Shown: positions 13,415 to 56,699 of the stretch, piece by piece
Layout of the letters: each line of letters opens with the position of its first letter
Numbering within the stretch: position 1 is the first letter of the stretch
Assembly: GCA_011375175.1 (NCBI GenBank)
Contig: DRME01000063.1
Coordinates: forward strand, 12,182-76,181
Source: Deltaproteobacteria bacterium
GTDB taxonomy: Bacteria; Desulfobacterota; GWC2-55-46; DRME01
DNA length: 64,000 bases
Reading direction: 5' to 3'
Notes under the pieces: model-generated
Seen by the model: only the letters and a program-made list of their open reading frames with translations
Database searches by the model: none
What the model was told of the DNA's origin: nothing
Position numbers and translations under genes: made by a program

Positions 13415-14494
13415 GTGCCCGGCAGTGGATGCAGGGAAGACGGCTTGAAGAGAAGGAGCTGCATACTCGCGGCCGCGGTCCTGGGAGTTCTCGCAGCCGC
13501 GGCCCTGGCCTTTTCACTGTGGTGGTGCGAGCCGTCGCGCCGGCTCGTCCGCGCCGTAGACCTCCACGCCACGGCCCCGGACGTGCGCTTCGGCGTCTAC
13601 TTCTATCCCTGGTACGACAAGGGCCGCTGGGCCGTGCCCCGCCGCCACACCCCCCTTCGTGGCGAGTACGACTCGACCGACCCCGGGCTCATAGCCGCCC
13701 AGATGGACGAGATACGCTCGGCGGGCTTCGACTACGTAATCATCGAGATGGTCCCGCCCGACGACCACGCCTTCGGGGTGGTGGAGAAGGGCATCGAGGC
13801 GGCCGTTGCGAGGCTGCGCGAGATCGGCATGGAGTGGACCTTCCTCATCGACGCGGCCTTCCTGCTCGCCCCGGAGCGGACCGCGAAGATCCACGACATG
13901 ATGGCATACATCGAAAAGCGGGGCTGGACCGACGGACTGACCGACGGGCCGACCGGCAGGGACCTGCTTCTGGTCTTCGCGCCCGACGCCCACGAGGCCG
14001 ACCTGCTGCTCGACCGCTACGGCGGGCGCTACGAGCTGCGCTTTCCGAACTTCCATCCCCGCTGGTCCATGGCCGTTGACGAGGAGATCATCATACCGGG
14101 CCCGAGGACCGGGCGCCTGAGGGAGAAGGCCCGCACGGGGCGGGTCTCCATATACGAGTATCTCAAGGCCCTCGGTTTCATCGCCTTCTGGACGGAGACG
14201 GGGCAGATGCGCCTTTTCGACGGCTTCGTGTCGGTGGTGCCTGGCTATGACGACACGCTCCTGGAGCGCACTCCCCAGGTGGCCCCCATAGTGGGACGGC
14301 GCGAGGGACGCACCTACGCCGAACAGCTCGAAAGGGCCATGGCGCTGGGCCCCGAGCACGTGCTCGTCTACAGCTGGAACGAGTACCTCGAGGCCACGGC
14401 CATAGAGCCCACAAGGGAGTTCGGCCGTCTCTACGTGGATATGACCCGCCGGTTCATCGAGCGGGTGCGCTCGGCGCGGGCCCAGGCCCACTGA
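13415..14494 (+). CDS. GH99/WbsX-like domain protein with signal/anchor peptide (paralog 1)
   Basis: Contains VYFYPWYDKGRW…HTPLRGEYDSTDPGLIAAQMDEIRSAGFDYVII…YSWNEYLEATAIEP. The FYYPWYG/G.Y.S.D/..Q…AG pattern is GH99 (endo-mannosidase-like). The N-terminus is hydrophobic. The true start may be the TTG at ~13448 (MKRRSCILAAAV…). Confidence 0.7.
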   Translation: MPGSGCREDGLKRRSCILAAAVLGVLAAAALAFSLWWCEPSRRLVRAVDLHATAPDVRFGVYFYPWYDKGRWAVPRRHTPLRGEYDSTDPGLIAAQMDEIRSAGFDYVIIEMVPPDDHAFGVVEKGIEAAVARLREIGMEWTFLIDAAFLLAPERTAKIHDMMAYIEKRGWTDGLTDGPTGRDLLLVFAPDAHEADLLLDRYGGRYELRFPNFHPRWSMAVDEEIIIPGPRTGRLREKARTGRVSIYEYLKALGFIAFWTETGQMRLFDGFVSVVPGYDDTLLERTPQVAPIVGRREGRTYAEQLERAMALGPEHVLVYSWNEYLEATAIEPTREFGRLYVDMTRRFIERVRSARAQAH

Positions 14495-14504
14495 GCGGGC
14501 GGGG

Positions 14505-15557
14505 GTGCAGATGAGGTTGCGGGTCCTCGCCGCCGTCTTCGCCGTCCCCGCCGCGGCGGCTCTCATGCTCTGGTACGCCTGTCCGGAGCGCCGCGTAGCG
14601 GCGCTCTTCGATCCGCCCCGGGGCCTGGGGGACGTGAAGGTGGGCATATACTTCTATCCCTGGTACGACGACTCGCGCTGGCGCATCCCCCGCAGGCACA
14701 CCCCCCTTGCCGGCGAGTACCGCTCTGCCGACGGCTCCGTCATAGCCGGCCAGATGGAGCTTATTGCCTCCACCGGCGTGGACTACGTGATCTTCGAGCT
14801 CGTCGCCCCCGAGGACCACGCCTTCGCCCTCGTCGAAGAGGCGATAGCCGCGGCGATCCCCCACCTTCGGAGGCTGGGGCTGCGCTGGAGCTTCCTCTTC
14901 GACGCCGCGCCCTTCAGGCGGCGCGACCGCGACAGGCTCCTGCCGCGGCTCTTCCGGCTCATCGAGGAGCGGGGCTGGACCGACGGGCTCGTGGATGGGC
15001 CGAGCGGCAGGGAGCTCGTCTTCGTCTTCTCGCCCGCCCCGAGCGAGGCGGCGGCGCTCCTGGAACGCTACGGCGGCCGCTACGAGCTCCGCTTCCCCAT
15101 CTTCCTTCCCTCGTGGGACGCGACGCTGGAGCCCTCCAAGTTCGTCGACACGCCCTGGACGGCCGCCCTGCGCGATGAGGCCGCTTCCGGCGCCCTCACG
15201 CTCCACCGCTACTTCGAGGCCCTCCGCTACGTGGCCTTCTGGACCGGGACGGGGCAGATGCGCTCCTTCGACGGCTTCGTGGCGGTTGTGCCAGGCTACG
15301 ACGACACGCTCTTAAGGCGCACGCCACAGCTTGCGCCGGTCCTTGCGAGGCGGGAAGGCATGACGTACCTCGAGCAGTTCCAGGCGGCCGCGCGGCTTGG
15401 CCCCAGCCATATCCTCATCTACGGCTGGAACGAGTACCTCGAGGCCACGACAATCGAGCCGGCCGTGGAGTACGGCTTCTTCTATACCGATCTTACACGG
15501 GAGTTCATAGGGCGACTGAAGGACGGCGGCCGGCACACGAGCGCCGCCGCGCACTGA
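14505..15557 (+). CDS. GH99/WbsX-like domain protein with signal/anchor peptide (paralog 2)
   Basis: Tandem paralog of 13415–14494 with the same blocks throughout (IYFYPWYDDSRW…GEYRSADGSVIAGQME…YGWNEYLEATTIEP). Confidence 0.7.
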   Translation: MQMRLRVLAAVFAVPAAAALMLWYACPERRVAALFDPPRGLGDVKVGIYFYPWYDDSRWRIPRRHTPLAGEYRSADGSVIAGQMELIASTGVDYVIFELVAPEDHAFALVEEAIAAAIPHLRRLGLRWSFLFDAAPFRRRDRDRLLPRLFRLIEERGWTDGLVDGPSGRELVFVFSPAPSEAAALLERYGGRYELRFPIFLPSWDATLEPSKFVDTPWTAALRDEAASGALTLHRYFEALRYVAFWTGTGQMRSFDGFVAVVPGYDDTLLRRTPQLAPVLARREGMTYLEQFQAAARLGPSHILIYGWNEYLEATTIEPAVEYGFFYTDLTREFIGRLKDGGRHTSAAAH

Positions 15558-23987: not shown

Positions 23988-26021
23988 CTATGAGCGGCCC
24001 CCGCCCTCTTCCACGTAGAGGTCGAGGGTCGCCGTCTTCGCCCCCTTCTGGGCGAACCAGGCGACGTTCTCCTGGACAAGGTCGATCTCCACCGTGTAGC
24101 GGCCGGGCCTGCGCGGGGCGATGAAGCGCGCGCCGTTGACCGACGTCGTGCCCGGCGTCACGCAGTAGAGCGGCGTGCGCGAGAAATCCCGGTCGATCAT
24201 GGCGCCGTCGCCGTCGCGCAGCTGCGCGCCGACGCGCACGGGAAAGAACCTCGTGGAGCAGAGCGTGTGGGTGCCCCTGTTCGTTATCTCCACCGGGACC
24301 ACCACGATCTCGCCGGGCAGGGCGCGCACCTGCTCCACGGCGGCGCGCAGCTCCACCCGGAAGGCGCTCTCCGGGAGCCTGAAGTCGAGTGGCCGGGTGA
24401 GGGCGCGGTAGTCGCGCCAGGCCGGCAGGCGCTCGGTTATGTTGTAGTCGAAGGCGAGGATGCGGTACGGGCCGTGGGCGAGCTCGCGGGCCGGGCGGCC
24501 GAGCCGCGTAAAGAGGATTTCGTTGTCGATCTCCTCGCCCGGCGAGAGCATGATGAAGCTCGGTCCCCGGTGGTTCTCGGCCGCGTACCAGCGCCGCGAC
24601 GACAGCCAGTAGTAGGGCTCCAGGAGTCCTTCGGCGTTTATGAGAATCTGGTTCGTCTGCACTCTCCAGTCCGAGAGGGCCGTTATGACGCCGGCGTTCC
24701 AGAAGGTGGCGTAGCCGTAACTCGCGCCTTCGGCCTCTAAGAAGGCCGTGACGTCGGAGAAGTGGTTCCTCTGACGACCGAGCTCGATGGAGCCGTCCGG
24801 GCGGACCTTCAGCAGCGCCGGTGCGTTGAGCAGGAGCATGGAGCTCAAGCAGAAGGGGAGCAGCGCCGCCGTCAGCGCCGCGGCGGACTTCTCGCCGAGG
24901 CGCAGGCCGTCGACGGACATGCCGAGGACGACGGTCGAGAGGAAGAGCGGATAGACGAGGTAGCGCGACGAGAACCTGTCTATGGTGACGGTGGTGAGGA
25001 GCAGCGAGAGCAGCGCCACCGTGAGGCAAAGGCCGTAGTAGGCCACCATCATCCGCAGGCGGCGGTCCCCGCCGCCTCTTGCGGCGACCAGCATCCACAG
25101 CGGCACCAGGAAGACGACGGCGGCGAGAAAGGCGCCGCGCAGCCAGTTGAGCGGCGCAAAGGGGATGTAGAAGGGGGCGCGTCCCGTGAAGACGCCGTTG
25201 AAGAGAAAGCCGAGGCCCTCCAGCACTATCCTTGCGTTTTCGGGGATCCTCTCGTAGGGGACGAGTCTTATGGGCGCGCCCGCGGCCGTGCCCTTGGAGG
25301 CCGCGAAGGCCCAGTAGCTCATGATTCCGCCGAGAGAGGCGAGCACCCATATGCCGGCGACAACGAGGTAGCGGTAGTCGCGCTCCCCGTGGCGCCTGTC
25401 CATGACCCATGCGCCGAGAAGCACGGCGACGAAGGGGAGGATGTTTCGCGCGAGGTTGGATAGGCCGGTGAGGGCGTTGAAGAAGACGAGAAAGAAGAGC
25501 AGGGCCGTCAGCGCCGCGGCCCGGCTCTCCCGGAGAAGGTCGCTATTGAGCAGGGAAAAAGAGACGGCCACGGCGGCCAGCGCCACGAGTGTGCCGTCGA
25601 GATAGGACGCCTGGCCGTACATGTACTCGGCGAAAAAGGACGATACCCCCGTTCCAAGGAGCGACGCCGTCACCAGGAAGCCTATGGAGGTGCGGCCTCC
25701 CATGACGGCCCTGACCGTCCACAGGAGGGCCGCGATGAAGGCGAGGACCGCAAGGCCCCGGCAGGCGATGGAGTAGCCCAGGAAGGGGGAGAAGAGGTGC
25801 ATCAGGAGCGTGGGCTTGAGGAGCATTATGCCCGTGCCGTAGTTCCACAGCGCCGGAAGCAGCGACCACGAGTCGCGCTGTTCCCTGGCAAGCCCCATGT
25901 AGGCCGCCGAGTCGGAGTGGAATATGACCGGATATGTGACGAATATATAGAAGAGCAGCGACAGCGCGCCTGCTACGGCGGTCGCCTGGAGCATGAGTGC
26001 CGCAGGGCGGTTAAAGCTCAA
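23988..26021 (-). CDS. Large polytopic membrane protein, putative GT-C-fold glycosyltransferase
   Basis: 677 aa. It has ≥10 predicted TM helices in the N-terminal two-thirds and a ~250-aa soluble C-terminal domain. It is the first gene of the operon, directly upstream of the GT2 polyprenyl-P-sugar synthase. Confidence 0.45.
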   Translation of the reverse strand: MSFNRPAALMLQATAVAGALSLLFYIFVTYPVIFHSDSAAYMGLAREQRDSWSLLPALWNYGTGIMLLKPTLLMHLFSPFLGYSIACRGLAVLAFIAALLWTVRAVMGGRTSIGFLVTASLLGTGVSSFFAEYMYGQASYLDGTLVALAAVAVSFSLLNSDLLRESRAAALTALLFFLVFFNALTGLSNLARNILPFVAVLLGAWVMDRRHGERDYRYLVVAGIWVLASLGGIMSYWAFAASKGTAAGAPIRLVPYERIPENARIVLEGLGFLFNGVFTGRAPFYIPFAPLNWLRGAFLAAVVFLVPLWMLVAARGGGDRRLRMMVAYYGLCLTVALLSLLLTTVTIDRFSSRYLVYPLFLSTVVLGMSVDGLRLGEKSAAALTAALLPFCLSSMLLLNAPALLKVRPDGSIELGRQRNHFSDVTAFLEAEGASYGYATFWNAGVITALSDWRVQTNQILINAEGLLEPYYWLSSRRWYAAENHRGPSFIMLSPGEEIDNEILFTRLGRPARELAHGPYRILAFDYNITERLPAWRDYRALTRPLDFRLPESAFRVELRAAVEQVRALPGEIVVVPVEITNRGTHTLCSTRFFPVRVGAQLRDGDGAMIDRDFSRTPLYCVTPGTTSVNGARFIAPRRPGRYTVEIDLVQENVAWFAQKGAKTATLDLYVEEGGGRS

Positions 26022-26295
26022 CGGTATTTTCCTCGATATTAATGTTGTCGTCCCGTGCGGGGCCGCAGGCCCCGCCGTGACGGCGCCATGTGTGCATTAT
26101 AATATACAGTATGAGCCGGAAGCAGGGCAATACAAATCTCGACGGCGGCCATAGCGCTTGAAGGAGGTTCGGCGTAGTGGTAAGATCAGCGGAACAGACC
26201 GTTTCTTCCTGCAGTGTTCACGTCGAGGGCGCCGGACGGGCCGCCTCGGCCCTCACCGGCGGCTTCGAGCCGGCCCGCGACTCCGGGACCCCGTA

Positions 26296-27342
26296 ATGTC
26301 TCTGTCAGCCAAATCGTCGTTTCTTCTCAGTCTCCTCTACGCCAGGGCAGCGGGCAGGAGGATACCGCTCACCGTCATATTCAACGTAACGGACCGGTGC
26401 AACCTCAAGTGCGCCTACTGCTACGCCGGGTACCACAGGCGCCGGAAACCGGAGCTCACGACCGGCCAGATAAGGCGCGCAATCGACGAGCTCGCGGAGA
26501 TGGGCTGCCGCCGCGTGAGCATAAGCGGCGGCGAGCCGCTTCTCAGAAAGGACATAGGCGAAATAATAGGGCACGTCAGGTCGCTGGGGCTCATGTGCAC
26601 GGTCAACAGCAACGGCGCGCTCGTGCCCCGCAGGATCGACGACCTCCGGGGCATAGACGCCCTCGCCCTGAGCCTCGACGGCGACAGGGAGGCCCACGAC
26701 GCATACCGCGGCGAGGGGAGTTTTGATCGGGTCATCGAGGCCATAGAGGCGGCCAGGGCCGCGGGCATAAGGGTCCACACCAACACGGTCCTTACGAAAA
26801 AGAACCTCCATACCGTCAAGTTCGTCCTCGATCTGGCCGATGAATATGAAATAATGGCCGAGTTCAACCTCTGCATCGCCTATCTCTTCGACAGGGACAA
26901 GGCGGCCGACTACAAGAGCGACGACGAGAAGATAAGGGATGTGCTAAGAGAGATCATAAGGTACAAGGACGAGGGCAGACGCATTCTCTTTTCGCGGCAG
27001 GCCTACGAGCTGAGCCTCAAGTGGCCGAGCTACGACATGGAGTCGGTCTTCGGCGAGGAGCCGGACTTTCCCCACGCCCGCTGCGCCGCGGGCCGCTACT
27101 TCTGCTTCTTCGACACCGACGGCACGCTCTACGCCTGCCCCCATCTCATGGGTCTGCAGAAAGGGCGCAGCGTCGTGGCCGACGGCCTTGCAAGGGCCTT
27201 CGACGGCCTCGACGACCACGACTGCAGGGCCTGCTACCAGGTATACCACAACGAGTTCAACCTGCTCTTCGGCCTCGACTGGAGGGTGCTGGCCAATCAG
27301 ATACGGAACAACCTCTTTTCCTTTCACCGCGAACGAGAATGA
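26296..27342 (+). CDS. Radical SAM/SPASM domain protein (paralog A)
   Basis: CNLKCAYC (Cx3Cx2C) at residues ~24–31 and GGEPLL. The C-terminus has Cys clusters typical of SPASM auxiliary Fe-S domains (CAAGRYFC…YACPH…HDCRACY). Confidence 0.85.
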   Translation: MSLSAKSSFLLSLLYARAAGRRIPLTVIFNVTDRCNLKCAYCYAGYHRRRKPELTTGQIRRAIDELAEMGCRRVSISGGEPLLRKDIGEIIGHVRSLGLMCTVNSNGALVPRRIDDLRGIDALALSLDGDREAHDAYRGEGSFDRVIEAIEAARAAGIRVHTNTVLTKKNLHTVKFVLDLADEYEIMAEFNLCIAYLFDRDKAADYKSDDEKIRDVLREIIRYKDEGRRILFSRQAYELSLKWPSYDMESVFGEEPDFPHARCAAGRYFCFFDTDGTLYACPHLMGLQKGRSVVADGLARAFDGLDDHDCRACYQVYHNEFNLLFGLDWRVLANQIRNNLFSFHRERE

Positions 27343-27395
27343 GGGGCCGTCTCCCTCGTGCGGAAGGCTTCCCCGGCAACGGAGGGTTATGACCA

Positions 27396-28433
27396 ATGAG
27401 CCTTGCTGACAGGGCCGTATTCTTCGGGAGGGTCATAAAGTCGCGGCTCACCGGCGCGCGCGCGCCGCTCGTGGTTGTGCTCAACGTCATCAACCGCTGC
27501 AACCTGCGGTGCATATACTGTTACGGCGAGTACTACGACAGGAAGGTCGCCGACTTCACCACCGGCGAGCTGAAGGACCTCATAGACGAACTCGCCGCCA
27601 TGGGCACCAAGTCCATAACCATAGGCGGCGGCGAGCCGCTGCTCAGAGGCGACATAGGCGAGATAATAGCCCACGTCAAGAGCCGCCGCATCGAGTGCGG
27701 CATGAACACCAACGGCACTCTCATACCGAAGAAGATCGACGCCGTCTCGCAGCTCGACTCGGTCTGCGTGAGCCTCGACGGCGACGAGGTGCCCAACGAC
27801 CTCAACCGCGGCGACGGCACCTACCGCCGCATCGTGGAGGGCATAAAGGCCGCCAGGGCCGCCGGCGTCCACGTCCACACCAACACGGTGCTCACGAGGA
27901 ACAGCATAGGGTCCATAGACCATATCATGAGGCTCGCCCGCAAGCTCGGCTTCATGACGGAGTTCAACCTGCCCTTCTACCTCGGCGAGAGGGACTCGAA
28001 GAACGACGAGCTCTATCCAGACGACGAGCAGTGCCGCCGGGCGTGGCGCAAGATACTGGACTACAAGGCCAGGGGCTATCCCGTGCTCTTTTCGAGGGCC
28101 TCGCACCTCTACGCCCTGCGCTGGCCCGACTACCGCCGGCGCGTCTACTACGACGAGGACCCCGACTTCGATTACATACGCTGTTACGCCGGCAGGCTCA
28201 TGTGCTTCATAGACAGCGACGGGTCGGTCTACCCCTGCGCGCAGCTTATCGGCACCTTCGAGGCCCGCAACATACGCGACGAGGGCGGCTTCGCCGCCGC
28301 CTGGGAGCACCTGGCGTCAAACCCATGCAGGACCTGTTACTTCACGTGCTTCAACCACTTCAACCTCATCTTCAGGCTCGACGCCTCCACCATCGCCGAG
28401 ACCGTGAAGAACACCTTCAGGGAAGCGCTCTGA
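27396..28433 (+). CDS. Radical SAM/SPASM domain protein (paralog B)
   Basis: CNLRCIYC, GGGEPLL and a C-terminal Cys cluster (CYAGRLMC…YPCAQ…NPCRTCY). It is collinear throughout with paralogs A and C. Confidence 0.85.
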   Translation: MSLADRAVFFGRVIKSRLTGARAPLVVVLNVINRCNLRCIYCYGEYYDRKVADFTTGELKDLIDELAAMGTKSITIGGGEPLLRGDIGEIIAHVKSRRIECGMNTNGTLIPKKIDAVSQLDSVCVSLDGDEVPNDLNRGDGTYRRIVEGIKAARAAGVHVHTNTVLTRNSIGSIDHIMRLARKLGFMTEFNLPFYLGERDSKNDELYPDDEQCRRAWRKILDYKARGYPVLFSRASHLYALRWPDYRRRVYYDEDPDFDYIRCYAGRLMCFIDSDGSVYPCAQLIGTFEARNIRDEGGFAAAWEHLASNPCRTCYFTCFNHFNLIFRLDASTIAETVKNTFREAL

Positions 28434-29476
28434 TGTCAGCCGTGTGGGAGAAGGCCGCTTTCTTTCTGAAACTCCTTCGCCTCAGGGCCACCGGCGCCAG
28501 GGCGCCCCTCTTCGTCTTCTTCAACGTCACCAACAGGTGCAACGCCCGCTGCTCCTACTGCTTCGGCGCCTACTACGAACGTTACGCAAGCGAGCGCCGC
28601 AGGGAGCTCACGACGGGGCAGATACTCTCCGTCATAGACGGGCTCTCGGATATGGGCACGCGCCGCATAGGCATCACGGGCGGAGAGCCCCTTCTGAGAG
28701 AGGACATAGCCGAGATCATAGCCCGCATAAGGGAGCGGGGCATGAGCTGCGGGCTCAACACCAACGGCTTTCTCGTGCCCGCGAGGCTCGACGACATCAG
28801 GGGCGTGGACAACGTGACCATAAGCCTCGACGGCGACAGGGACGCCCACGACGCCAACAGGGGAAAGGGGAGCTTCGACAGGGTCATGGCCGCCGTGGAG
28901 GCCGTGAGGGCCGCCGCCATACCGCTCCACCTGAGCACGGTCGTGACCGCGCGCAACAGGGACTCGCTCGATTTCGTAATGGAGTTCGCCAGGCAAAGGG
29001 GCGTACCCGTCCAGGTGAGCCCCCTCTACGAACGCTTCTGGGGCGAGAAGGACGAGGGCTTCCCGGCAAAGCTCGATCAGGGGGAGCTGCGCGAGACCAT
29101 CGGGCGCGTCATGGAGTACAAGCGCCGGGGATACCCGGTCTTCTTCTCGCTCAGGACCTACGAGAAGATACTGGCCTGGCCCTACGGCGACCGCGACAGG
29201 GTGGTGGGCGAGGAGCCGGACTTTCCCCACGCCCGCTGCTACATGGGCCGCCTGCTCTGCACCATCGACGCCAGCGGCGACGTCTACCCCTGCGCCCAGC
29301 TCGAGGGCTTCAGGGTGAAGAACGCCGTGGAGGACGGCCTGCGCGATGCCTTCGACAACATAGCGGACCACGACTGCCGGGCATGCCTCTGGGCCTGCTA
29401 CAACGAGTACAACCTCCTCTTCGCCCTCGACCCCGCCGTCCTGTGGAACACGGTGAGGAACGCATTGACGCACTGA
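28433..29476 (+). CDS. Radical SAM/SPASM domain protein (paralog C)
   Basis: ATG overlaps the upstream stop (TGATG). It has CNARCSYC, GGEPLL and a C-terminal Cys cluster (CYMGRLLC…YPCAQ…HDCRACLWACY). Confidence 0.85.
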   Translation: MSAVWEKAAFFLKLLRLRATGARAPLFVFFNVTNRCNARCSYCFGAYYERYASERRRELTTGQILSVIDGLSDMGTRRIGITGGEPLLREDIAEIIARIRERGMSCGLNTNGFLVPARLDDIRGVDNVTISLDGDRDAHDANRGKGSFDRVMAAVEAVRAAAIPLHLSTVVTARNRDSLDFVMEFARQRGVPVQVSPLYERFWGEKDEGFPAKLDQGELRETIGRVMEYKRRGYPVFFSLRTYEKILAWPYGDRDRVVGEEPDFPHARCYMGRLLCTIDASGDVYPCAQLEGFRVKNAVEDGLRDAFDNIADHDCRACLWACYNEYNLLFALDPAVLWNTVRNALTH

Positions 29477-29482
29477 GGGGCC

Positions 29483-30517
29483 ATGGACAACGGTACGGAC
29501 ATATCGGTCGTAGTGCCCGTCTACAACGAGCGCGAGGTGCTGCCCCACCTCTACGAGCGGCTCGCCTCGGTGCTCGAGGGCCTGGGGATGAGCTACGAGA
29601 TAATCTTCGTCAACGACGCGAGCACCGACGACTCGCTCCATATCCTGCGGGGCCTTCACGAGCGCGACGGCCGCGTGAAGATACTCTCCTTTTCGCGCAA
29701 CTTCGGCCACCAGACGGCCGTCACCGCCGGGCTCAACTTCAGCCGCGGCCGCGCCGTCGTCGTCATGGACGGCGATCTCCAGGACCCGCCCGAGTGCATA
29801 CCGGCCTTTGTCGCCAGATGGAGGGAGGGCAACGAGGTCGTCTACGGCGTCAGGAGAAAGCGCAAGGAGAGCCTCATGAAGAGGGCGCTCTACAAGGTCT
29901 ACTACCGGGTGCTGCGCCTCCTCTCCAAGGTGGACATACCGCTCGACAGCGGGGACTTCTGCCTCATGGACCGCAAGGTGGTCGAGCTCCTGAACCACAT
30001 GCCCGAGCGCAACCGCTTCGTGCGGGGGCTGCGCCGCTGGGTGGGCTTCAGGCAGGCGGGCGTGCCCTACGAACGCGACGCCCGCTACGCCGGCGAGTCG
30101 AAGTACACCTTCTTCAAGCTCGTAAAGCTCGCGCTCGACGGCATCGTGAGCTTCTCGGAGCTGCCGCTCAAGGCCTCGGTGCTCATAGGCTTCGCCATAT
30201 CGATAATGACGGTCGTATACTCCTTCTATCTCATAGTCAACAGGATCGTCCACCCCGCAAACCAGATACCGGGCTGGACGTCCATCATCGTGGCCGTCAC
30301 CTTTCTCGGCGGCATAGAGCTCATGGTCATGGGTTTCCTCGGCGAGTACCTGCTGAGGATATACGACGAGGTCAAGGACCGTCCCCAGTACATACTCAAC
30401 GGGGTCATAGGATTCGAGGAGAAGGGCGATGCCGAGGGTGTCGGTGGTGATTCCGGCCTACAACGCGGAGAAGTACATAGAGAAGTGCCTGGCCTCTCTC
30501 AGGGCCCAGAGCTATGA
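29483..30517 (+). CDS. GT2 glycosyltransferase, polyprenyl-phosphate sugar synthase-like (ArnC/DPM1-like)
   Basis: ISVVVPVYNERE…IIFVNDASTDDS…VVMDGDLQDPPECIP with C-terminal TM helices. Its last ~30 aa overlap the next gene by 89 nt. Confidence 0.8.
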   Translation: MDNGTDISVVVPVYNEREVLPHLYERLASVLEGLGMSYEIIFVNDASTDDSLHILRGLHERDGRVKILSFSRNFGHQTAVTAGLNFSRGRAVVVMDGDLQDPPECIPAFVARWREGNEVVYGVRRKRKESLMKRALYKVYYRVLRLLSKVDIPLDSGDFCLMDRKVVELLNHMPERNRFVRGLRRWVGFRQAGVPYERDARYAGESKYTFFKLVKLALDGIVSFSELPLKASVLIGFAISIMTVVYSFYLIVNRIVHPANQIPGWTSIIVAVTFLGGIELMVMGFLGEYLLRIYDEVKDRPQYILNGVIGFEEKGDAEGVGGDSGLQRGEVHREVPGLSQGPEL

Positions 30518-31439
30518 CGACTACGAAGTGATAGTCGTCGACGACGGCTCCACGGACCGCACGGCCGAGCTGGCCGCCGCATACGCCCGTGTCGTGAAGG
30601 CGCCGCGAAACCTCGGCGAGGGGGGCGCCCGGAACCTCGGCGCCCGCGAGGCCGAGGGCGAGATACTGGCCTTCACCGACGCCGACGTGGTCGTGCCCGA
30701 GGACTGGCTCGAAAAGATCGTCGCCACCATGGACAAAGAAGGGGTCGAGTGCGTGGGAGGCGGCTACTGCGGCTCCATGGGCGACGGCTTCATCGAGCGC
30801 TTCGCCTTCCACGAGCTCGCCTACAGGCGAAAGGACCTCGCCGGAGAGGTCAACACCATAGTCTCCAACAACTTCGCCTGCCGCCGCGACGTCTTCTGGG
30901 AGTTCGGCGGCTTCCCGGAGCGCTACAAGGTCGAGGACCTGCGGCTCTCCTACCTCATAAGCAGGAAGTACAGGATCCTGTGGGACAGGACGAACGGCGT
31001 CTACCATCACTTCCGTCCCGACCTCTACGGCTACCTGCGCCAGATGTACTACTTCAGCAGGGACACGGTCTGGACCTACTACAGCTACCCGGAGCTCGTC
31101 TTCCACAGGACCCACCAGGGCAGGCTCATATACGTCGAGATAATGAGCGTGCTCGCCGCCCTGGCGGCCGCTCCCCTCTGGCCGGCGGCGCTGCTCTTTG
31201 CGCCCATGGCCGTGGGGGCCCTCAACTACGGGTTCCTCAGCCACCTCGCCCGAAACCGTCTGTCCGTGGCCCGGTCCATGGGCGTTATCATAGCGAGAGA
31301 CCTTGTCGTCTCCCTCGGCATCGTCACGGGCGCGGCGCTCTGCGCCGGCGACGCATGGTCGCGGCGCTTCGGCTCCGCCAGGGGATGCGCGGAAGCGGGG
31401 AGCGACACCGATGAAGAGAGAAAGGACTTCGTGAAGTGA
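30429..31439 (+). CDS. GT2 family glycosyltransferase
   Basis: VSVVIPAYNAEKYIEKCL…VIVVDDGSTDRT…FTDADVVVPEDWL (a DxD-type GT-A fold) with a hydrophobic C-terminal region. Confidence 0.8.
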   Translation: MPRVSVVIPAYNAEKYIEKCLASLRAQSYDDYEVIVVDDGSTDRTAELAAAYARVVKAPRNLGEGGARNLGAREAEGEILAFTDADVVVPEDWLEKIVATMDKEGVECVGGGYCGSMGDGFIERFAFHELAYRRKDLAGEVNTIVSNNFACRRDVFWEFGGFPERYKVEDLRLSYLISRKYRILWDRTNGVYHHFRPDLYGYLRQMYYFSRDTVWTYYSYPELVFHRTHQGRLIYVEIMSVLAALAAAPLWPAALLFAPMAVGALNYGFLSHLARNRLSVARSMGVIIARDLVVSLGIVTGAALCAGDAWSRRFGSARGCAEAGSDTDEERKDFVK

Positions 31440-31449
31440 GGAGACCGTT

Positions 31450-32967
31450 ATGAAGATACTTCTTGTAAACCCTCCGTGGTACAGGCTCCAGGGCGCCTCT
31501 CTGGTGCACTATCCGCCGGGTCCCTGCTTCGTGGCCGGGGCGCTCGAGAAGGCGGGCTACGAGCCGGTGGTCTGGAACGCCGACTTCGACCCGGCCGTCA
31601 GGTCCGTCATAGGGGGCACCAACGTGCTCGACACCGACGAGCTCACGCAAAAGCACAGCATCTACCAGAAGAACCTCAACGACCTCTCGGCGCCCGTGTG
31701 GCGCGAGGTGGCCTCCATGATCGAGCGCTTCGCACCCGACGTGCTCGGCGTCTCGGTCTACAGCGCAACATACAAGGCGGCCCTCAACGTGGCCCGCATA
31801 GCAAAGGAGGTGAACCCCGCCGTAACGACCGTCTTCGGAGGCATACACCCCACCATAGCCACCGAGGAGGTGGCCTCGCAGCGCGACGTGGACTTCGTCG
31901 TCTTCGGCGAGGGCGAGCGCACGGTGGTGGAGCTCGTGGGGGCCCTGGAGGCGAGAGACGGCGCTGGCCGCGACTTCTCCTCCATAAAGGGCATCGCCTT
32001 CAAGGACGGGGACGGCAACGTGGTCAGGACCGAGCGGCGCGAGTACATAGAGGACCTCGACGCCGAGGTCTACCCGGCCCGCCACCTCATCCACGACGTG
32101 GAGAGCTACCCGCCAACGGCCTTCCAGGGCATATACGGCTCGCGGGGCTGTCCCTTCAAGTGCATATTCTGCGGCTCCTTCAACCTCTGGGGCTACAGCG
32201 TGAGGACCAGGAGCGCCGAGACCCTGGTGGCCGAGATCGAGGAGACACACCGCCGCTTCGGCACCCGCTACTTCTACCTCTGCGACGACATATTCTTCAT
32301 AAACCGCGAGCGGGCGCGCCGCTTCTGCGAGCTGCTCATCGAAAAGGACCTGGGCGTCATGTGGTCGGCCCAGACGAGGGCCGAGATGGTGACCGACGAA
32401 CTCCTTGCGCTCATGAAGAAGGCCGGCGGCCAGCACGTGGCCATTGGGGTCGAGACCGGCGACGAGAGGATAAGAAAGCTCATAAAGAAGGGCAACACGC
32501 TCGAGCAGATGCGCCGCGCCGCAAGGCTCGTCCACAAGCACGGCCTGACGCTCGTCGGCTTCTTCATGTTCGGCTTCCCCTGGGAGTCGCGCGAAGAGAT
32601 AAGGCGCACCGTCGAGTTCATGAAGGAGATAAACCCGACAATCGCCTTCCCCTACATAGTCACGCCCGCCCCGGGCACGGAGTTATCGCAGATATCGCAC
32701 GAGATGGGCCTTGTGGGACCCGACCGGGAGCTCGAGAACTTCTACCACGAGAGCCCGGAGATGTGCCTGAGCGTCAACATCCCCGAGGAGGAGAGAAAGG
32801 GCATAATCGACGAAACGCTCAAGGTCTTCGCCGAGCACAACAAGAAGCGCTTCAGGCTCGACGTGCTGAAGAGGCCGCGCTTCTACTACACGCTCTTCCA
32901 CGACTTCGGGTTCTTCAGAAACCCCATGCAGTTCGTCCAGGTCCTGAGGGACGTGGTCGCGGGCTGA
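31450..32967 (+). CDS. B12-binding (class B) radical SAM protein
   Basis: The N-terminal cobalamin-binding-like Rossmann region (MKILLVNPPW…, VLGVSVYSATY…VFGGIHPT) is followed by an rSAM core CPFKCIFC. Length is 505 aa. Confidence 0.85.
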   Translation: MKILLVNPPWYRLQGASLVHYPPGPCFVAGALEKAGYEPVVWNADFDPAVRSVIGGTNVLDTDELTQKHSIYQKNLNDLSAPVWREVASMIERFAPDVLGVSVYSATYKAALNVARIAKEVNPAVTTVFGGIHPTIATEEVASQRDVDFVVFGEGERTVVELVGALEARDGAGRDFSSIKGIAFKDGDGNVVRTERREYIEDLDAEVYPARHLIHDVESYPPTAFQGIYGSRGCPFKCIFCGSFNLWGYSVRTRSAETLVAEIEETHRRFGTRYFYLCDDIFFINRERARRFCELLIEKDLGVMWSAQTRAEMVTDELLALMKKAGGQHVAIGVETGDERIRKLIKKGNTLEQMRRAARLVHKHGLTLVGFFMFGFPWESREEIRRTVEFMKEINPTIAFPYIVTPAPGTELSQISHEMGLVGPDRELENFYHESPEMCLSVNIPEEERKGIIDETLKVFAEHNKKRFRLDVLKRPRFYYTLFHDFGFFRNPMQFVQVLRDVVAG

Positions 32968-32982: not shown

Positions 32983-35412
32983 ATGGAGCAGCACAAAGCA
33001 GCGCAGCGCCGCAGCGCCGCCCCTGTGCTCGTCGGCGCGGCGGCGCTCGCCGCCTTCGCGCTCCTCAGCCGCGGGCTCATCACGGGCGACGAGATATTCA
33101 CCCACGACTCGCTCCTCTCCTACGGCCCCTTCCACTACGCCCTCGACGCCATGAGCGAGGGAATAGTGCCGCTCTGGGACCCCTACAGCATAACGGGGCT
33201 GCCCTTCTATCCCAACCTCAACTTCTCGTCCCTCATAGACCCGCTCATACTGCCCTTCATCCCCCTTGCGCGGCTTTCCGGTCCCGACTTCGTGCTCTGG
33301 TACGTCCACTTCTGGCTCGTAAAGCTCCTCGTCTTCGCCCTGGGCGCCTATCTTCTCTTCTCCCGTGTGGCCGGGAGCAGGGCCGCCGGGGCCGCCGGAG
33401 CGGGCGTTCTCCTTCTGGCCGTCGCGCCCGTCTCCTTCAGGCAGCTCGGCGTCATATGCGCGGTCTACCTGACGCCCATGGTCATGTATCTTCTGCTGCG
33501 GCTCTTCGACCCTGGCACGAGACGGCAGACGAGGCTTCGCCTCGCGCTCTTCGTCCTTACGGCAGGCGTCTCCCTGAACCTCTTCATCCCCGTCTACTTC
33601 CTCTTCAACATCGTCTTCTACGCCGCCGCCCTTGTGGTCGCCGGGGCCGTGAAGTGGAGGGAGGGGCTCGCGAGGTTCCGGGGCGAAGACGGCCCCGGCC
33701 TCCTATTCCTGCTGTTCGTGCTCGCCGCGGCCGTCATGATCTGTGGTCCGCTCCTCGCCCTCTACATCGACTCATCGGGCGGCGAGATATTCCCCCACAT
33801 ACGGATACTCCAGAAGAACGGCTGGGTCTACAAGCAGATGATGGCCTCGGAACTGGCCGGCGACGTGCTCTCCCACAAGTTCACCAGGTCCCTGGGCGTG
33901 TACAGCTCGCTGGGCAACCTCGTAAACCTCGTCTATCCCGACATGTTCCGCTCCTACTTCGCAAGGGCCGACTACTTCAGGATGAACGACCTGACGAGCG
34001 AGGTCTTCCAGTACATGGGCATCGTGCCCTTCGTGCTGGCCCTGGCGGCCCTTGTGCGCTCGCGCTCGCCCCATCGCCTCGCGGCCCTTCTCATGGTCGT
34101 GATCACAGGGGTGAACATGATAAGCCTCGAGGGCGTGCACGACAGGGCGCCCAACGTGGTGCAGAGGCTCTTTTCCGCCGTATTTCCGCCCCTTGAGATG
34201 ATAGACGTGAAGGAGCAGTTCGGGGGGTTCTTCCTCCTCTACCTCTCCATGCTCTTCTCGCTCGGCGTAAGGCCGCTCTTCGAGGGCCGGGACTTGGGGG
34301 CGGCGGCGCGCTCGCTCCTGCGTCCCGTGCTCGTCGCCTCGGCGGCCGTGCTCGCCTTCAAGCTCGCCGTCTCGTGGGCCTGCTTCGGGCGCCTGCTCTT
34401 CGTCTCGGGCCTCGATCTCCTCTGCCTCGCCGTGCTCGCCGCCTTCTGCGCCCTCCTCGTCCTCTTTGCGGGGACCGGCAAGGAGAGACGGCGGCCTCTG
34501 TTCACGGTCCTTCTCACGGCCTTCCTCTTCATCGACCTAACGGCCGCGGGCGCCGCCATGAAGCGTTACGTGGTCCAGCCCAACACCCTCTCCCCCGTCC
34601 TGAAAAAGCACGCCCGCAAGGGCTCTTTCGGCGAAGACTTCGAGCTCTACCGCATCCCCTTCATGGACGTGAGCCTCGTCTACGCCGAGGCGGTCTTCAA
34701 GCGGAAGAGCTCCATCGCCCCCGGCGGCGTCCACAGGCAGATGTTCACCACCAAGCGCTACTACGACCTCCTCACAAACGTCCCTCTCGAAAAACACTTC
34801 GCCCTCACCGGCATCGTCTATCCCCTGTTGCGGTTCGTCCCCGCCGGTGACGCCGAGCTCGTCCCGGGCAGACGGGAGGCCTTCTCGGCCGTAAGGGAGG
34901 CGACCATCGAGGAACTGGGCCGCAAGGTCTTCATAGAGAAGGACGGCGCCGCCGGGGGGCCTGCGGCGGACTTCAAGAGCCTGGACGAGTTTCCCGACGC
35001 CCCCTGGCTCATGGCGGTCAACGTAAAGCGCGCCTACCGCCGTTTCCTCGAAAGGGAGAAGGCCCTTGTGGAAGGGGCGAGGAGACGGGCCGGCGACTAT
35101 ATCGAGACCGACCGCTTCGGGGTGCGGCTCCTGGAGTTCACGCCCAACACGGCGGTCTTCGGCGTCCGAAGCCGCGTCGACGGCTATCTCTACTACAACG
35201 ACGGCTGGAGCCGGTACTGGAGGGCGACGGTCGACGGCCGCGAGGCGGAGCTTCTCGTGGCGGACTACAATTCCAAGGCCGTCGCGCTGTCGGCCGGCGA
35301 GCACACCGTAAGGCTCGTCTACGACCCCCTGCACTACAGGCTCGGTCTCTTCGCCTACCTCGCGGCAATCGCCGCGCTGCTGGGGGTCGTGCTCCTCAAC
35401 ACACGCCGTTGA
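32983..35412 (+). CDS. Large polytopic membrane protein (YfhO-like/GT-C-like)
   Basis: 809 aa with ≥12 predicted TM helices and a C-terminal soluble domain. It lies downstream of two GT2 polyprenyl-P-sugar synthase-like genes. Confidence 0.45.
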   Translation: MEQHKAAQRRSAAPVLVGAAALAAFALLSRGLITGDEIFTHDSLLSYGPFHYALDAMSEGIVPLWDPYSITGLPFYPNLNFSSLIDPLILPFIPLARLSGPDFVLWYVHFWLVKLLVFALGAYLLFSRVAGSRAAGAAGAGVLLLAVAPVSFRQLGVICAVYLTPMVMYLLLRLFDPGTRRQTRLRLALFVLTAGVSLNLFIPVYFLFNIVFYAAALVVAGAVKWREGLARFRGEDGPGLLFLLFVLAAAVMICGPLLALYIDSSGGEIFPHIRILQKNGWVYKQMMASELAGDVLSHKFTRSLGVYSSLGNLVNLVYPDMFRSYFARADYFRMNDLTSEVFQYMGIVPFVLALAALVRSRSPHRLAALLMVVITGVNMISLEGVHDRAPNVVQRLFSAVFPPLEMIDVKEQFGGFFLLYLSMLFSLGVRPLFEGRDLGAAARSLLRPVLVASAAVLAFKLAVSWACFGRLLFVSGLDLLCLAVLAAFCALLVLFAGTGKERRRPLFTVLLTAFLFIDLTAAGAAMKRYVVQPNTLSPVLKKHARKGSFGEDFELYRIPFMDVSLVYAEAVFKRKSSIAPGGVHRQMFTTKRYYDLLTNVPLEKHFALTGIVYPLLRFVPAGDAELVPGRREAFSAVREATIEELGRKVFIEKDGAAGGPAADFKSLDEFPDAPWLMAVNVKRAYRRFLEREKALVEGARRRAGDYIETDRFGVRLLEFTPNTAVFGVRSRVDGYLYYNDGWSRYWRATVDGREAELLVADYNSKAVALSAGEHTVRLVYDPLHYRLGLFAYLAAIAALLGVVLLNTRR

Positions 35413-35747
35413 AGGTCCTGCGCCTCCTCTCCGGGACCGGCTTGAGAAAAAGACGCGGCGGGGTGTTTTTTGTCTTGAGGCCGGCGGCACCCCGTGTTAA
35501 GGTCGCAGAGATGACCTTTCCCGCCTCTGCCTTGCCTCCCAAGTGCTTGATTTTAATAGCAGTTCCATTTCCGTTACACTTTCCGGCGCCACGGCGCCAG
35601 CCTCTCCCCTGAAAGACGAGGGACGAAAAAAAGCTGCCTGTGACCGGCGTCACATACCGTCTTACGCCCCTTTGCTATCATGGAGACAGGATAAAGAAGA
35701 AGAGCTTGCAGTGCATACACTTACAAATATGAGAGAACGGGGGCTTG

Positions 35748-37675
35748 AGATGAATAGGGGAACGGCAAAGACAAGGACGGCGGCGGCGGTGCTCATCTTC
35801 GCACTGTTTTTCCCTGTGGCGTCGTCGTATGGGGCCGATGCTACACTCACGTGGAACCCTCCGACCACGAACACCGACGGCTCTCCGCTCACTGATCTCG
35901 ACGGTTACTACGTCTACTACGGCACCACGTCCGGCAGCTACGACCAGAAGGTCGACGTGGGCAACATAACGGAGTACAAGGTCACGGGACTCACCTCCGG
36001 CACCCGCTACTACTTCGCCGTGACGGCCTACAACACGGCCGGCAGGGAGAGCTCCTATTCGGCGGAGAAGAGCAAGGTCGTCTTCGACGCCGACACCACG
36101 GCTCCCTCCATATCGGGCGTATACGTATCCAACATCGGCCAGACGAGCGCCGAGATAAACTGGACGACCGACGAGGACGCCGATTCGCTTGTCCGTTACG
36201 GCGTCACCGCCTCCTACGGTTCCAACGTCTTCGACTCGTCCATGGGCAAGGCCCACACCATGGTCATAAGCGGGCTCAGCCCCTCGACGACCTACAACTT
36301 CCAGGTGCTCAGCACCGACGCCTCGGGCAACCAGGCCTCTTCGGGCAACTACACGTTCACCACCGCCGACGTGCCCGACACGACGGCCCCCGCCATCTCG
36401 GACATCAGGTTCACCGACATCACCTCTTCGTCGGTGACCGTCACGTGGAAGACCGACGAGCCCTCCACCTCGCAGGTCGAGTACGGCCTCGACACTTCCT
36501 ACGCAAGCGCGAGCGCCCTGGACTCGACGCTCACCACGTCACACCGGGTCGTGATCACCGGGCTGTCGGCCTACACGACCTACCACGCGCGCGTCATCTC
36601 GGCCGACGCCGCCGGCAACAGCGCGGTTTCGAGCGATCACTACTTCATAACCTCCAACACGGCGCCTTCCATAACGTCGCTTGACGCCAGCCCCTCGTCG
36701 GGCTATGCGCCGCTGTATGTGAGCTTCACGGCGGCGGCCTCCGACGCCGACGGCTTCGTGGCGAGCTACGAGTGGGACTTCGACGGCGACGGCGCCTACG
36801 ACGACGACACGGGCACGGTGGCCGCGGCCTCCCACACCTACACGTCGCCCGGCACCTACACGGCCGTCCTCAAGGTGACCGACAACGGCGGCGCCTCGAC
36901 GACGGCCCAGGTTACGGTGACGGTCAAGGACGTGGTCAACACCCTGCCCGTAATATCGTCCTTCACGGCCGATCCCCTCTCGGGCACGGCCCCCCTCGAT
37001 GTGACCTTCAGCGTGTCGGCCTCCGACGCCGACGGCTCCATAGCGGGCTACGAGTGGGACTTCGACGGCAACGGCACCTACGAGGCCTCGACCTCCACCG
37101 TGCCGGTCTCCCACACCTACACGGCCCCGGGGACCTACAAGGCTGTGGTGAGGGTCACCGACGACGACGGCGCCTCGGTGACGGCCTCGGTGACCATAGA
37201 GGTGGCCGACGCGTCGTCCAAGGGCGCCGACACGACGGGGTCGACGACGACGACCACCACCTCGGCGGACAACACCACCACCTCGTCGCTCGCCGCATCG
37301 ACGACGGCCCAGGGGCCGGTGACCTCCGACGGCGGCAACTGCTTCATCGCCACGGCCGCCTTCGGCAGCTACCTGGACCCCCATGTGAACGTCCTCAGGC
37401 AGTTCAGGGACGAGTACCTGCTGACCAACGCCGCGGGCAGGGCGTTCGTGGACTTCTACTACGCCGTATCTCCTCCGCTCGCGGCCTTCATAGCCGACCA
37501 CGACTGGCTGCGGGCCGCTGTCAGGGTCGCTCTCACCCCCCTCATCTTCGCCGTGATGTACCCCGCGGCGGCGTTCATCGCGATGGCCGTCTTTGCGGCC
37601 GCCGCGGCCGTGAGCGTCTCGCTCTACCGTGACCACCGCCGCCGCCGCGCTCTCAGGAAAAAGTACTCCTTCTGA
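35748..37675 (+). CDS. Secreted multidomain surface protein: signal peptide, 3× FN3-like, 2× PKD, a Ser/Thr-rich linker, and a Cys-initiated C-terminal anchor module (TM helix plus basic tail)
   Basis: Signal peptide is [29 protein letters not shown]. There are three ~95-aa repeats with TAPxIS…Y…TTY (FN3-like) and two PKD repeats (YEWDFDGDG…HTY…GTY…V.VTD). The linker is [19 protein letters not shown]. The C-terminus is [28 protein letters not shown]…[44 protein letters not shown]. Confidence 0.8.
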
Positions 37676-56578: not shown

Positions 56579-56699
56579 CAAAATATAACTCTATGAACCG
56601 GCCGCTCAAGTGTGTTATAATTTCTATAGCTGATGCGGGTTGGTCGCCCCGGCGCTTCGGGCCGCGGGGCAGGCGACAAACGGTAAGAGGGTGAAAGTA

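Follow-up and report, generated by a model that had tools for sequence, protein, structure and literature searches.

A radical SAM cassette with GtrB-type and GT-C glycosyltransferases in a Deltaproteobacteria genome: a candidate pathway for the tailoring of lipid-linked sugars

Extracytoplasmic glycosylation can proceed through a polyprenyl-phosphate-linked sugar, and several such systems are known, i.e., Gtr, Arn, CsbB-YfhO and Pgf. The pairing of a GtrB-type glycosyltransferase of family 2 (GT2) with a glycosyltransferase of the GT-C fold is the defining logic of these three-component systems, which move the sugar either unmodified or altered by ordinary enzymes, as in the Arn pathway. Sugars can also be edited by enzymes of the radical S-adenosylmethionine (SAM) superfamily. 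In the bacteriohopanetetrol cyclitol ether pathway (HpnI/HpnJ), and in archaea with the calditol synthase Cds, a lipid-attached sugar is ring-contracted by a radical SAM enzyme (PMC13459092). In aminoglycosides, the deoxygenation at C3' involves the AprD4/AprD3 pair, a radical SAM 1,2-diol dehydratase and an NADPH reductase that act on a sugar (PMC5461906). Class-B radical SAM enzymes, i.e., those with a B12-binding domain, comprise more than 220,000 sequences, of which a few dozen have known reactions (PMC12931638). Here we analyzed a stretch of 64,000 nucleotides, hereafter called the window, from a Deltaproteobacteria bacterium (GenBank assembly GCA_011375175.1, contig DRME01000063.1, positions 12,182 to 76,181), and more precisely a class-B gene located at 31450-32967 on its forward strand (+). 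Judged by its neighborhoods in other genomes, this B12 gene is the signature part of a conserved, portable and horizontally mobile cassette, and not a chance guest of an exopolysaccharide (EPS) locus. We propose that this cassette tailors a sugar carried by a lipid.

The class-B enzyme and its conserved cassette

The open reading frame (ORF) at 31450-32967 is a real gene. It begins with an ATG preceded, 6 nt upstream, by a ribosome-binding site (GGAG), and the GT2 gene before it reaches its stop codon 10 nt ahead of this start. Its GC content by codon position 1/2/3 (0.60/0.40/0.90) is the coding signature of a genome with 64% GC, a signature that the overlapping minus-strand ORFs do not display. 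In Pfam, its product of 505 amino acids (aa) carries a B12-binding domain (PF02310, 72.1 bits for a cutoff of 32.1, E 4.6e-20, aa 21-162) followed by a Radical_SAM domain (PF04055, 91.5 bits for a cutoff of 29.5, E 8.7e-26, aa 231-390). The latter contains the CxxxCxxC motif (CPFKCIFC, aa 234-241), whose three cysteines C234, C238 and C241 are invariant across 47 homologs. An AlphaFold model built on these 47 homologs (pLDDT 90.0, pTM 0.91) matches over its full length the structures of AprD4 (1.1e-22) and MgmA (1.4e-22), then those of TsrM, OxsB, TokK and CysS. Among solved structures, AprD4 ranks first both by sequence (117 bits) and by fold (TMt 0.73). The two features that define class B, a CxxxCxxC core and an N-terminal Rossmann-type B12-binding domain, are thus both present, and the class-B assignment made in the initial annotation is confirmed.

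Judged by profile, the N-terminus forms what resembles a genuine B12 domain, and it may bind cobalamin. It also presents a particularity. The PF02310 match extends over 142 residues for 108 profile positions and includes an insertion of about 50 residues (aa 43-95) between the first and the second strand, which is family-specific and conserved and which holds the invariant residues N43, D45, L76 and W84. This insertion may form a lid facing the substrate or the membrane. No cobalamin riboswitch or other Rfam element was found in the 64-kb window.

We next consider the family to which the enzyme belongs. It matches 36 NCBIfam models, and all 36 scores are far below the curated cutoffs, so that membership in a named family is rejected. 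The highest-scoring model is BchE, the anaerobic Mg-protoporphyrin IX monomethyl ester cyclase (TIGR02026, 206 bits for a cutoff of 481), followed by HpnJ (TIGR03471, 189 bits, cutoff 577.6), the ribosomally synthesized and post-translationally modified peptide (RiPP) enzyme ApyD (161 bits, cutoff 750), the ladderane B12 radical SAM (141 bits, cutoff 360), PhpK (123 bits, cutoff 600), AprD4 (NF033070, 116.8 bits over the radical SAM half only, cutoff 500), MgmA (116 bits, cutoff 360), rSAM_ocin_1 (106 bits, cutoff 282), KedN5 (104 bits, cutoff 700), HpnR (103 bits, cutoff 650) and Trp-2-C-MT (31 bits, cutoff 500). An identity as BchE is rejected on this score and because neither the window nor any related locus contains bacteriochlorophyll genes. 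An identity as HpnJ is rejected on its score and because a squalene-hopene cyclase was absent from the genes scanned. As for the diol dehydratases of the AprD4 family, the score is joined by the absence of a short-chain dehydrogenase/reductase (SDR) in the window cassette. The class-B C- and P-methyltransferase families (KedN5, PhpK, HpnR, MgmA, RiPP C-methyltransferases, TsrM-type) also all remain below cutoff. None of the 1479 database homologs has a functional name, and a few of them bear the source labels 'BchE' or 'YgiQ'. To judge by the profile scores, the enzyme belongs to an unnamed orthologous group, the 'BchE' label is an artefact that annotation derives from a generic resemblance among class-B enzymes, and both labels are misleading; if the substrate is indeed a lipid-linked sugar, they are wrong for these B12 genes.

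The homolog loci used for comparison came from two sources, the encoding assemblies and 80 loci on GTDB contigs (one genome per species), and the relatives of the genes neighboring the B12 gene in the window were located in them by tblastn. When the homolog is at least 45% identical to the 505-aa enzyme, all 13 recovered loci (L001-L005, L007-L013 and L090) carry partner orthologs as far as the contig reaches, the short contigs revealing only some of the partners. These partners are two GT2s, here called GT2a (48-67% identical) and GT2b (43-58%), and small radical SAM enzymes (35-56%), which are SPASM-like paralogs of 345 aa present in one to three copies per cassette. The full partner set was found in none of about 75 loci whose homolog is at most 40% identical. 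The named sources of the 13 loci are a Desulfobacteraceae, a Patescibacteria single-cell genome, a Daviesbacteria, two Omnitrophota and a metagenome-assembled genome (MAG) labeled 'Proteobacteria'. The commonest gene order is GT2a, GT2b, B12 radical SAM, radical SAM 1, radical SAM 2 and sometimes radical SAM 3; the window cassette is permuted relative to it. GT2b is the most constant partner of the B12 gene, being kept in L090, which has no GT2a ortholog. In L007, a cassette block of seven genes is flanked by unrelated genes encoding an extracytoplasmic function (ECF) sigma factor and a peptidase, which argues for a self-contained module and not for a feature of EPS loci.

The glycan context extends somewhat beyond the complete cassette. 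Indeed, all the homologs of at least 42% identity that we examined sit among glycosyltransferase or sugar-nucleotide genes. One homolog of 42% adjoins GT2, GT4, epimerase and NTP (nucleoside triphosphate)-transferase genes, and in an Aenigmarchaeota contig (L088, 44%) the B12 gene and a small radical SAM gene lie in a glycan cluster in which the full set was not seen. At 39% identity, a homolog from a Halobacteriota MAG stands beside mcrBGA and is evidently MgmA-like, which places the functional boundary of the family at around 40-42% identity. A function unrelated to glycans, which the initial annotation had named as a refutation, holds only for this archaeal paralog and not for the orthologs; the link to glycans drawn in the initial annotation is thus borne out by the comparison of loci. 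No carrier of the cassette was identified among cultivated organisms: in Kordiimonas sediminis (L024) there is only a paralog of 33% identity, and the cassette is absent.

The partner genes of the window can be described in turn. GT2a (29483-30517, +) matches PF00535 (114 bits) and ends with two transmembrane (TM) helices (around aa 221-256 and 264-287) and an GEYLLRIYDEVKDRPQYIL tail. Its full-length NCBIfam matches, PgfS (279 bits, cutoff 500) and ArnC (182 bits, cutoff 529), are both below cutoff, and its orthologs are found in 10 related cassette loci. This architecture would be that of the polyprenyl-phosphate glycosyltransferases (GtrB, ArnC, CsbB, PgfS), with polyprenyl phosphate as the putative substrate. 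GT2b (30429-31439, +), a second membrane-anchored GT2 of MftF/AglG-like type, matches PF00535 with 141 bits and also carries C-terminal TM segments. Its scores against MftF (126 bits) and AglG (69 bits) do not reach the cutoffs, those against HpnI (34 bits, cutoff 310) and HpnB are weak, and its orthologs are present in 11 related loci including L090.

Downstream of the B12 gene lies a gene for an 809-aa polytopic protein (32983-35412, +), a YfhO-like glycosyltransferase of the GT-C fold whose putative donor is a polyprenyl-phosphate sugar. It contains about 13 TM segments, has 13,936 relatives in an exhaustive profile search, and Pfam YfhO is matched by 21 of its 38 aligned relatives. In its predicted structure (pLDDT 90.6, pTM 0.92), the nearly invariant D42 lies just after TM1, at the position where GT-C enzymes such as ArnT, PglB and PMT carry their catalytic acid. 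The protein has a GT-C fold that crosses the membrane many times, its first extracytoplasmic loop holds a conserved acidic residue, and its top structural matches all use a polyprenyl-(di)phosphate-linked donor. The position described in the initial annotation, directly after two GT2 genes and before a GT-C-like membrane protein, is therefore correct. In most related loci with long enough flanks, the cassette is bordered by large proteins with many membrane spans. Besides the window, they are YfhO-like in L001, L002, L010 and L090 (Pfam) and in no other locus, and the idea of one shared family for these adjacent proteins is rejected. On the other side of the window cassette lies a gene (23988-26021, minus strand) whose transcription diverges from that of small radical SAM paralog 1. 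Its product of 677 aa, with about 10 TM segments, has no Pfam or NCBIfam match and no detectable similarity to the YfhO-like protein.

The three small radical SAM paralogs of the window lie in tandem at 26158-29476, are mutually 43-49% identical and each contain a CxxxCxxC motif. Paralog 1 (26158-27342, +; PF04055 108 bits, CNLKCAYC, five C-terminal Cys), whose true start is probably internal, near aa 47, matches no NCBIfam equivalog; its orthologs (41-50% identical) lie directly 3' of the B12 gene in L005 and L007-L013. Paralog 2 (27396-28433, +; 96.6 bits, six C-terminal Cys) has orthologs of 47-56% identity in L005 and L007-L012. Paralog 3 (28436-29476, +, the start being approximate; 98.9 bits, CNARCSYC, six C-terminal Cys), for which the ORF as listed opens far upstream in the same frame, at 27509, has orthologs in L004 (50%), L008 and L012. 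The C-terminal cysteines follow the pattern Cx6Cx10C...CxxC(xxxC), with five or six Cys. The initial annotation had called these enzymes three SPASM radical SAMs: the three radical SAM paralogs are indeed there, and the SPASM label is approximate, as Pfam PF13186 is detected in paralog 2 only and below threshold (19.9 bits for a cutoff of 21.5). The best NCBIfam scores of the small enzymes are against MftC (132 bits), PqqE and SkfB, with 69-87 bits against HpnH (cutoff 225), all below cutoff. Solved structures were also tried as a guide to their function, and the matches obtained are generic (40-51 bits to BlsE, PqqE, MoaA, SkfB and viperin).

The composition of the cassette varies in its redox partners. 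Fusion proteins, in which a classical SDR forms the C-terminal part of the B12 radical SAM enzyme, make up four ortholog clusters (P0009-P0012, 53-57% identity), and in L004 a separate SDR gene follows the B12 gene. This SDR is a generic classical one, PRK06181-like, and belongs to no sugar-specific family. The fusions point to a redox-coupled chemistry, at least in the fused variants. Moreover, the loci with an SDR contain zero or one small radical SAM gene and the other loci two or three, which suggests, on three loci versus about ten, that the SDR and the small radical SAM enzymes do interchangeable redox steps.

Some loci hold additional B12 radical SAM paralogs, different from the cassette enzyme: L001 (12107-14971), L002 (10349-11860) and L005 (2391-5939 and 11653-13524). 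The one of L001 reaches 256 bits against HpnJ, one reaches 278 bits against the Sden_1168 P-methyltransferase model, both below cutoff, and one is a giant of 1182 aa. From these extra and differing paralogs, the tailoring stage appears modular. Many genomes of Deltaproteobacteria, Caldilineae, Brocadiaceae and Omnitrophota (L031, L039, L084, L019 and L010) also line up four to seven B12 radical SAM paralogs in a row, frequently close to GT2 genes. This suggests that radical-SAM-rich clusters for glycan or lipid tailoring are common in uncultured anaerobes.

A proposed pathway and its alternatives

The reading that we favor, and to which we give an even chance, is that the cassette radically tailors a polyprenyl-phosphate-linked sugar, which the GT-C enzyme would then transfer outside the cell. 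Where a GtrB-type GT2 and a YfhO-type GT-C occur together, they typically mark a glycosylation outside the cytoplasm by way of such an intermediate, and this context points to the tailoring of a lipid-linked sugar and not of the main EPS repeat unit. In a first step, GT2a, placed in the GtrB/ArnC type by its architecture, would work on the cytoplasmic side of the membrane and transfer a sugar from its nucleotide to polyprenyl phosphate. GT2b could then add to this lipid-linked sugar or make a second one. The B12 enzyme and its one to three SPASM-like companions would next act on the lipid-linked sugar, abstracting hydrogen from its unactivated carbons and reshaping it. The candidates for this chemistry are C-methylation, as with GenK and GenD1; ring contraction to a carbasugar, as with HpnJ and Cds; or diol dehydration and reduction, as with AprD4/AprD3. 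A flippase would move the product across the membrane. Finally, the YfhO-like GT-C enzyme, assigned by its fold, would pass the sugar from its presumed donor to an extracytoplasmic acceptor, which in this genome could be the surrounding Wzx/Wzy-type EPS or the adjacent CFI-box-CTERM surface protein (see below).

A broader proposition is that we are facing a widespread and undescribed pathway, with the window cassette as its type example, in which a team of radical SAM enzymes (one of cobalamin type and up to three SPASM-like) would edit the unactivated carbons of a polyprenyl-phosphate sugar that a GT-C enzyme places at the surface. This would be the first radical SAM chemistry on a sugar linked to a lipid carrier, and it would yield surface sugars of a new class, whether C-alkylated, carbocyclic or deoxygenated. 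We advance this proposition tentatively, as somewhat less probable than the pathway in the window itself. Judged by where the orthologs occur, the pathway would exist in Desulfobacterota, Omnitrophota and Patescibacteria, and a DPANN archaeon would have a partial counterpart.

Several observations weigh against the proposed pathway. SPASM-type radical SAM enzymes are mostly peptide maturases. For every member of the group, we infer the substrate, the product and the binding of cobalamin, and GT2a scores below the PgfS and ArnC equivalog cutoffs and is missing from L090. The large membrane proteins adjacent to the cassette in L007, L009, L011 and L012 have no sequence similarity to the YfhO-like protein, and no large membrane protein was found at the cassette of L008, on a contig of 16 kb. 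A GtrA-like flippase was not found in the window by a heuristic ORF scan, which is not a profile search (ORFs of 80-260 aa, with a coding-type GC content at the third codon position and at least three hydrophobic segments); the sole hit was an ABC-2 permease (1627-2391). AprD4, the top structural match, has a B12-like N-terminal domain that does not bind cobalamin (PMC12931638). Finally, NTP-transferase and epimerase/dehydratase genes stand at several loci, so that the tailoring could occur on a nucleotide sugar.

The first alternative is a narrower version of the proposed pathway, in which the B12 enzyme would be a cobalamin-dependent C-methyltransferase, comparable to GenK, GenD1 or Fom3, producing C-methylated glycan sugars, as the initial annotation had suggested. 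Characterized class-B enzymes are mostly methylases, and GenK and GenD1 offer precedents on sugar carbons (PMC5461906, PMC12931638). The strong PF02310 match goes in the same direction, as does MgmA, a B12-dependent C-methylase that ties for the best fold match and aligns over both domains. However, the enzyme falls below the cutoff of every methylase model, its top profile matches, BchE and HpnJ, are not methylases, and the fusion or adjacency of an SDR in orthologs is not required for methyl transfer. Moreover, separate class-I SAM methyltransferases are already present in this locus and in related ones. In the predicted model, the fold does not separate a methylase from a non-methylase, since AprD4 and MgmA tie. 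Thus C-methylation is one candidate only, favored by no result and somewhat unlikely in our estimate, and ring contraction or deoxygenation fit equally well. Taken as a whole, the interpretation of the initial annotation is partly supported.

A second alternative concerns the moment of the tailoring. The radical SAM enzymes could act on a soluble nucleotide sugar before its use by the GT2s, in a pathway resembling those of deoxysugars or branched sugars. NTP-transferase and NAD-dependent epimerase/dehydratase genes are found beside the cassette in L002, L004, L010, L088, L089 and L090, and AprD4 and BlsE, the nearest solved relatives of the B12 enzyme and of the small radical SAM enzymes, act on soluble sugar conjugates. 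Neither the window cassette nor L007 has adjacent nucleotide-sugar genes, however, and the partners that recur most constantly are GT2s anchored in the membrane rather than enzymes of nucleotide-sugar metabolism. In addition, the HpnI/HpnJ and Cds precedents act after glycosyl transfer to the lipid (PMC13459092). We therefore regard a tailoring at the nucleotide-sugar level as unlikely.

The sugar could also remain on its lipid as an end-product. In this scheme, a membrane glycolipid would be made as in the HpnI/HpnJ or Cds pathways, its sugar being contracted to a cyclitol with no donor role. A GT2 associated with a radical SAM enzyme has a precedent (PMC13459092), the cassette enzyme has HpnJ as its profile match of second rank, the extra paralog of L001 scores 256 bits against HpnJ, and GT2b and the small radical SAM enzymes weakly match HpnB/HpnI and HpnH, respectively. 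But all these Hpn-type scores are below cutoff, no hopanoid (shc) or tetraether gene was seen in any cassette locus, and the GT-C transferase next door argues for a donor that is passed on. The cassette is, moreover, present in Patescibacteria, which are largely devoid of lipid biosynthesis. Such a glycolipid is, in our opinion, quite improbable.

Least probable of all would be the maturation of a protein or peptide (the CFI-box-CTERM protein or a RiPP) whose product the GT2s would glycosylate, as MftF in mycofactocin, a scheme in line with the best scores of the small radical SAM enzymes against maturases, and of GT2b against MftF, with the match of the B12 enzyme to ApyD, and with CFI-box-CTERM proteins adjoining the cassette in the window and lying near it in L007; but these scores, far below the family cutoffs, reflect generic radical SAM similarity, the CFI-box proteins are absent from 10 of 12 loci, the intergenic gaps of the window cassette (at most 137 bp) leave no room for a precursor-peptide gene and all-versus-all clustering at 12 loci found no conserved small ORF family, so that a RiPP or precursor-peptide model is rejected, and the pairing of a GtrB-type GT2 with a GT-C enzyme is left unexplained.

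The surrounding exopolysaccharide locus

In the window, the cassette sits inside a Wzx/Wzy-type EPS locus, with a WbaP-like priming transferase, many GT4s, Wza, Wzc and Wzy. The locus extends between ThyX and the ABC-2 permease, to its left, and Ffh, to its right. The insertion of the cassette there makes the EPS a plausible acceptor of the tailored sugar. Another, speculative acceptor is the product of the gene that follows the GT-C gene (35543-37675, +), a secreted protein with three FN3 and two PKD domains, a Thr/Ser-rich linker and, at its end, a CFI-box-CTERM anchor (NF041770, 109.8 bits for a cutoff of 40), whose motif is followed by a TM helix. A second CFI-box-CTERM protein is encoded in L007 (2679-3869), 2 kb from the cassette, on an unrelated metagenome contig. 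With such a protein at no more than 2 of 12 loci, a role as core partner of the cassette was rejected. A literature search on the CFI-box-CTERM domain returned nothing relevant.

The initial annotation had counted five radical SAM domains in this locus and seen in them a density very unusual for an EPS or O-antigen-type cluster. The count is exact: the B12 enzyme, the three tandem paralogs and the C-terminus of the ORF at 7989-12086. The density, on the other hand, is not a property of the EPS locus, as four of the five domains belong to the portable cassette, which stands alone in L007. The fifth domain belongs to a 1365-aa ORF (7989-12086, +) of unusual overall architecture. Its N-terminus is of the adenylating, AMP-ligase kind (PaaK/DVU_1553-like, 84 bits), the next 500 aa or so match no family, and its C-terminus is the radical SAM domain, which bears CTLKCPYC and a Cys-rich SPASM-like tail. 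The ORF is followed by an ORF with a class-I methyltransferase domain (around 12700-13405).

Other features of the locus can be mentioned. A GT4 fused to a GH99-like domain (55.7 bits) is encoded at 3133-5295 (+), and two tandem paralogs at 13415-14494 and 14505-15557 (+) present weak GH99/WbsX-like C-terminal matches. It is odd to see synthase and endo-mannosidase-like folds brought together within a single EPS locus. Further away, at 57348-60296 (+), a hybrid sensor combines 4HB_MCP, HAMP, HisKA, HATPase, two receiver domains and GGDEF, and is preceded by a regulator with helix-turn-helix and receiver domains (56640-57305). This sensor could link cyclic di-GMP to the control of the EPS, though it lies about 10 kb beyond the glycan locus.

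The cassette among known systems

The well-delimited ortholog group and its strict genomic signature lead to a concrete and testable substrate hypothesis, a lipid-linked sugar. If it is true, the editing of sugars by radical SAM enzymes would extend from antibiotics (GenK, AprD4, BtrN-type) and two lipid headgroups (HpnJ, Cds) to the glycosylation of the cell envelope. Unusual surface sugars would then be predicted in bacteria of the candidate phyla radiation (CPR), in Omnitrophota and in DPANN archaea, whose envelopes are almost uncharacterized and whose lifestyle depends on surface contact. If the reaction is a plain C-methylation, the result would be a useful yet modest family assignment, and the chemistry may prove to be of this ordinary kind. 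Our literature search found no publication describing the cassette and nothing relevant linking radical SAM enzymes with YfhO, GtrB or polyprenyl-linked sugars, and substrates of the polyprenyl or undecaprenyl kind go unmentioned in a 2026 review on the radical SAM enzymes that modify lipids.

Among enzymes described under other names, BchE resembles the 505-aa enzyme by the best NCBIfam score and by the name borne by some homologs. The methyltransferases GenK, GenD1 and Fom3 share its two-domain architecture, and GenK and GenD1 act on unactivated sugar carbons (PMC5461906); unlike these, the cassette enzyme reaches no methylase family model. The SDR fused or adjacent to the enzyme in orthologs mirrors the pairing of AprD4 with AprD3 (PMC5461906). 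On the contrary, AprD4 does not bind cobalamin (PMC12931638), whereas the cassette enzyme has a strong Pfam B12-binding match. The window cassette also differs from AprD4/AprD3 in lacking an SDR and in its context, which is that of cell-envelope glycosylation and not of antibiotic biosynthesis.

The likeness to HpnI/HpnJ and Cds lies in the proposed logic, in which a lipid anchored in the membrane receives a hexose from a GT2 before this sugar is rearranged by radical SAM chemistry (PMC13459092), and HpnJ is, like the cassette enzyme, of the B12-binding-domain class. The cassette differs by the absence of hopanoid or glycerol dialkyl glycerol tetraether (GDGT) genes and by the addition of one to three SPASM-like radical SAM enzymes, a GtrB-type GT2 and a GT-C transferase, additions that imply a carrier-linked donor rather than a final lipid headgroup. 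With GtrA/GtrB/GtrC, ArnC/ArnT, CsbB/YfhO, GtlA/GtlB and PgfS/PgfM, the cassette shares a GT2 of GtrB/ArnC/PgfS-type architecture together with a YfhO-like GT-C. Unlike these three-component systems, it contains radical SAM enzymes, and no GtrA-like flippase appeared in the heuristic scan of the window. In conclusion, what would be new here is a radical SAM editing stage, with an enzyme from a known superfamily, added to the known GtrB/GT-C glycosylation logic.

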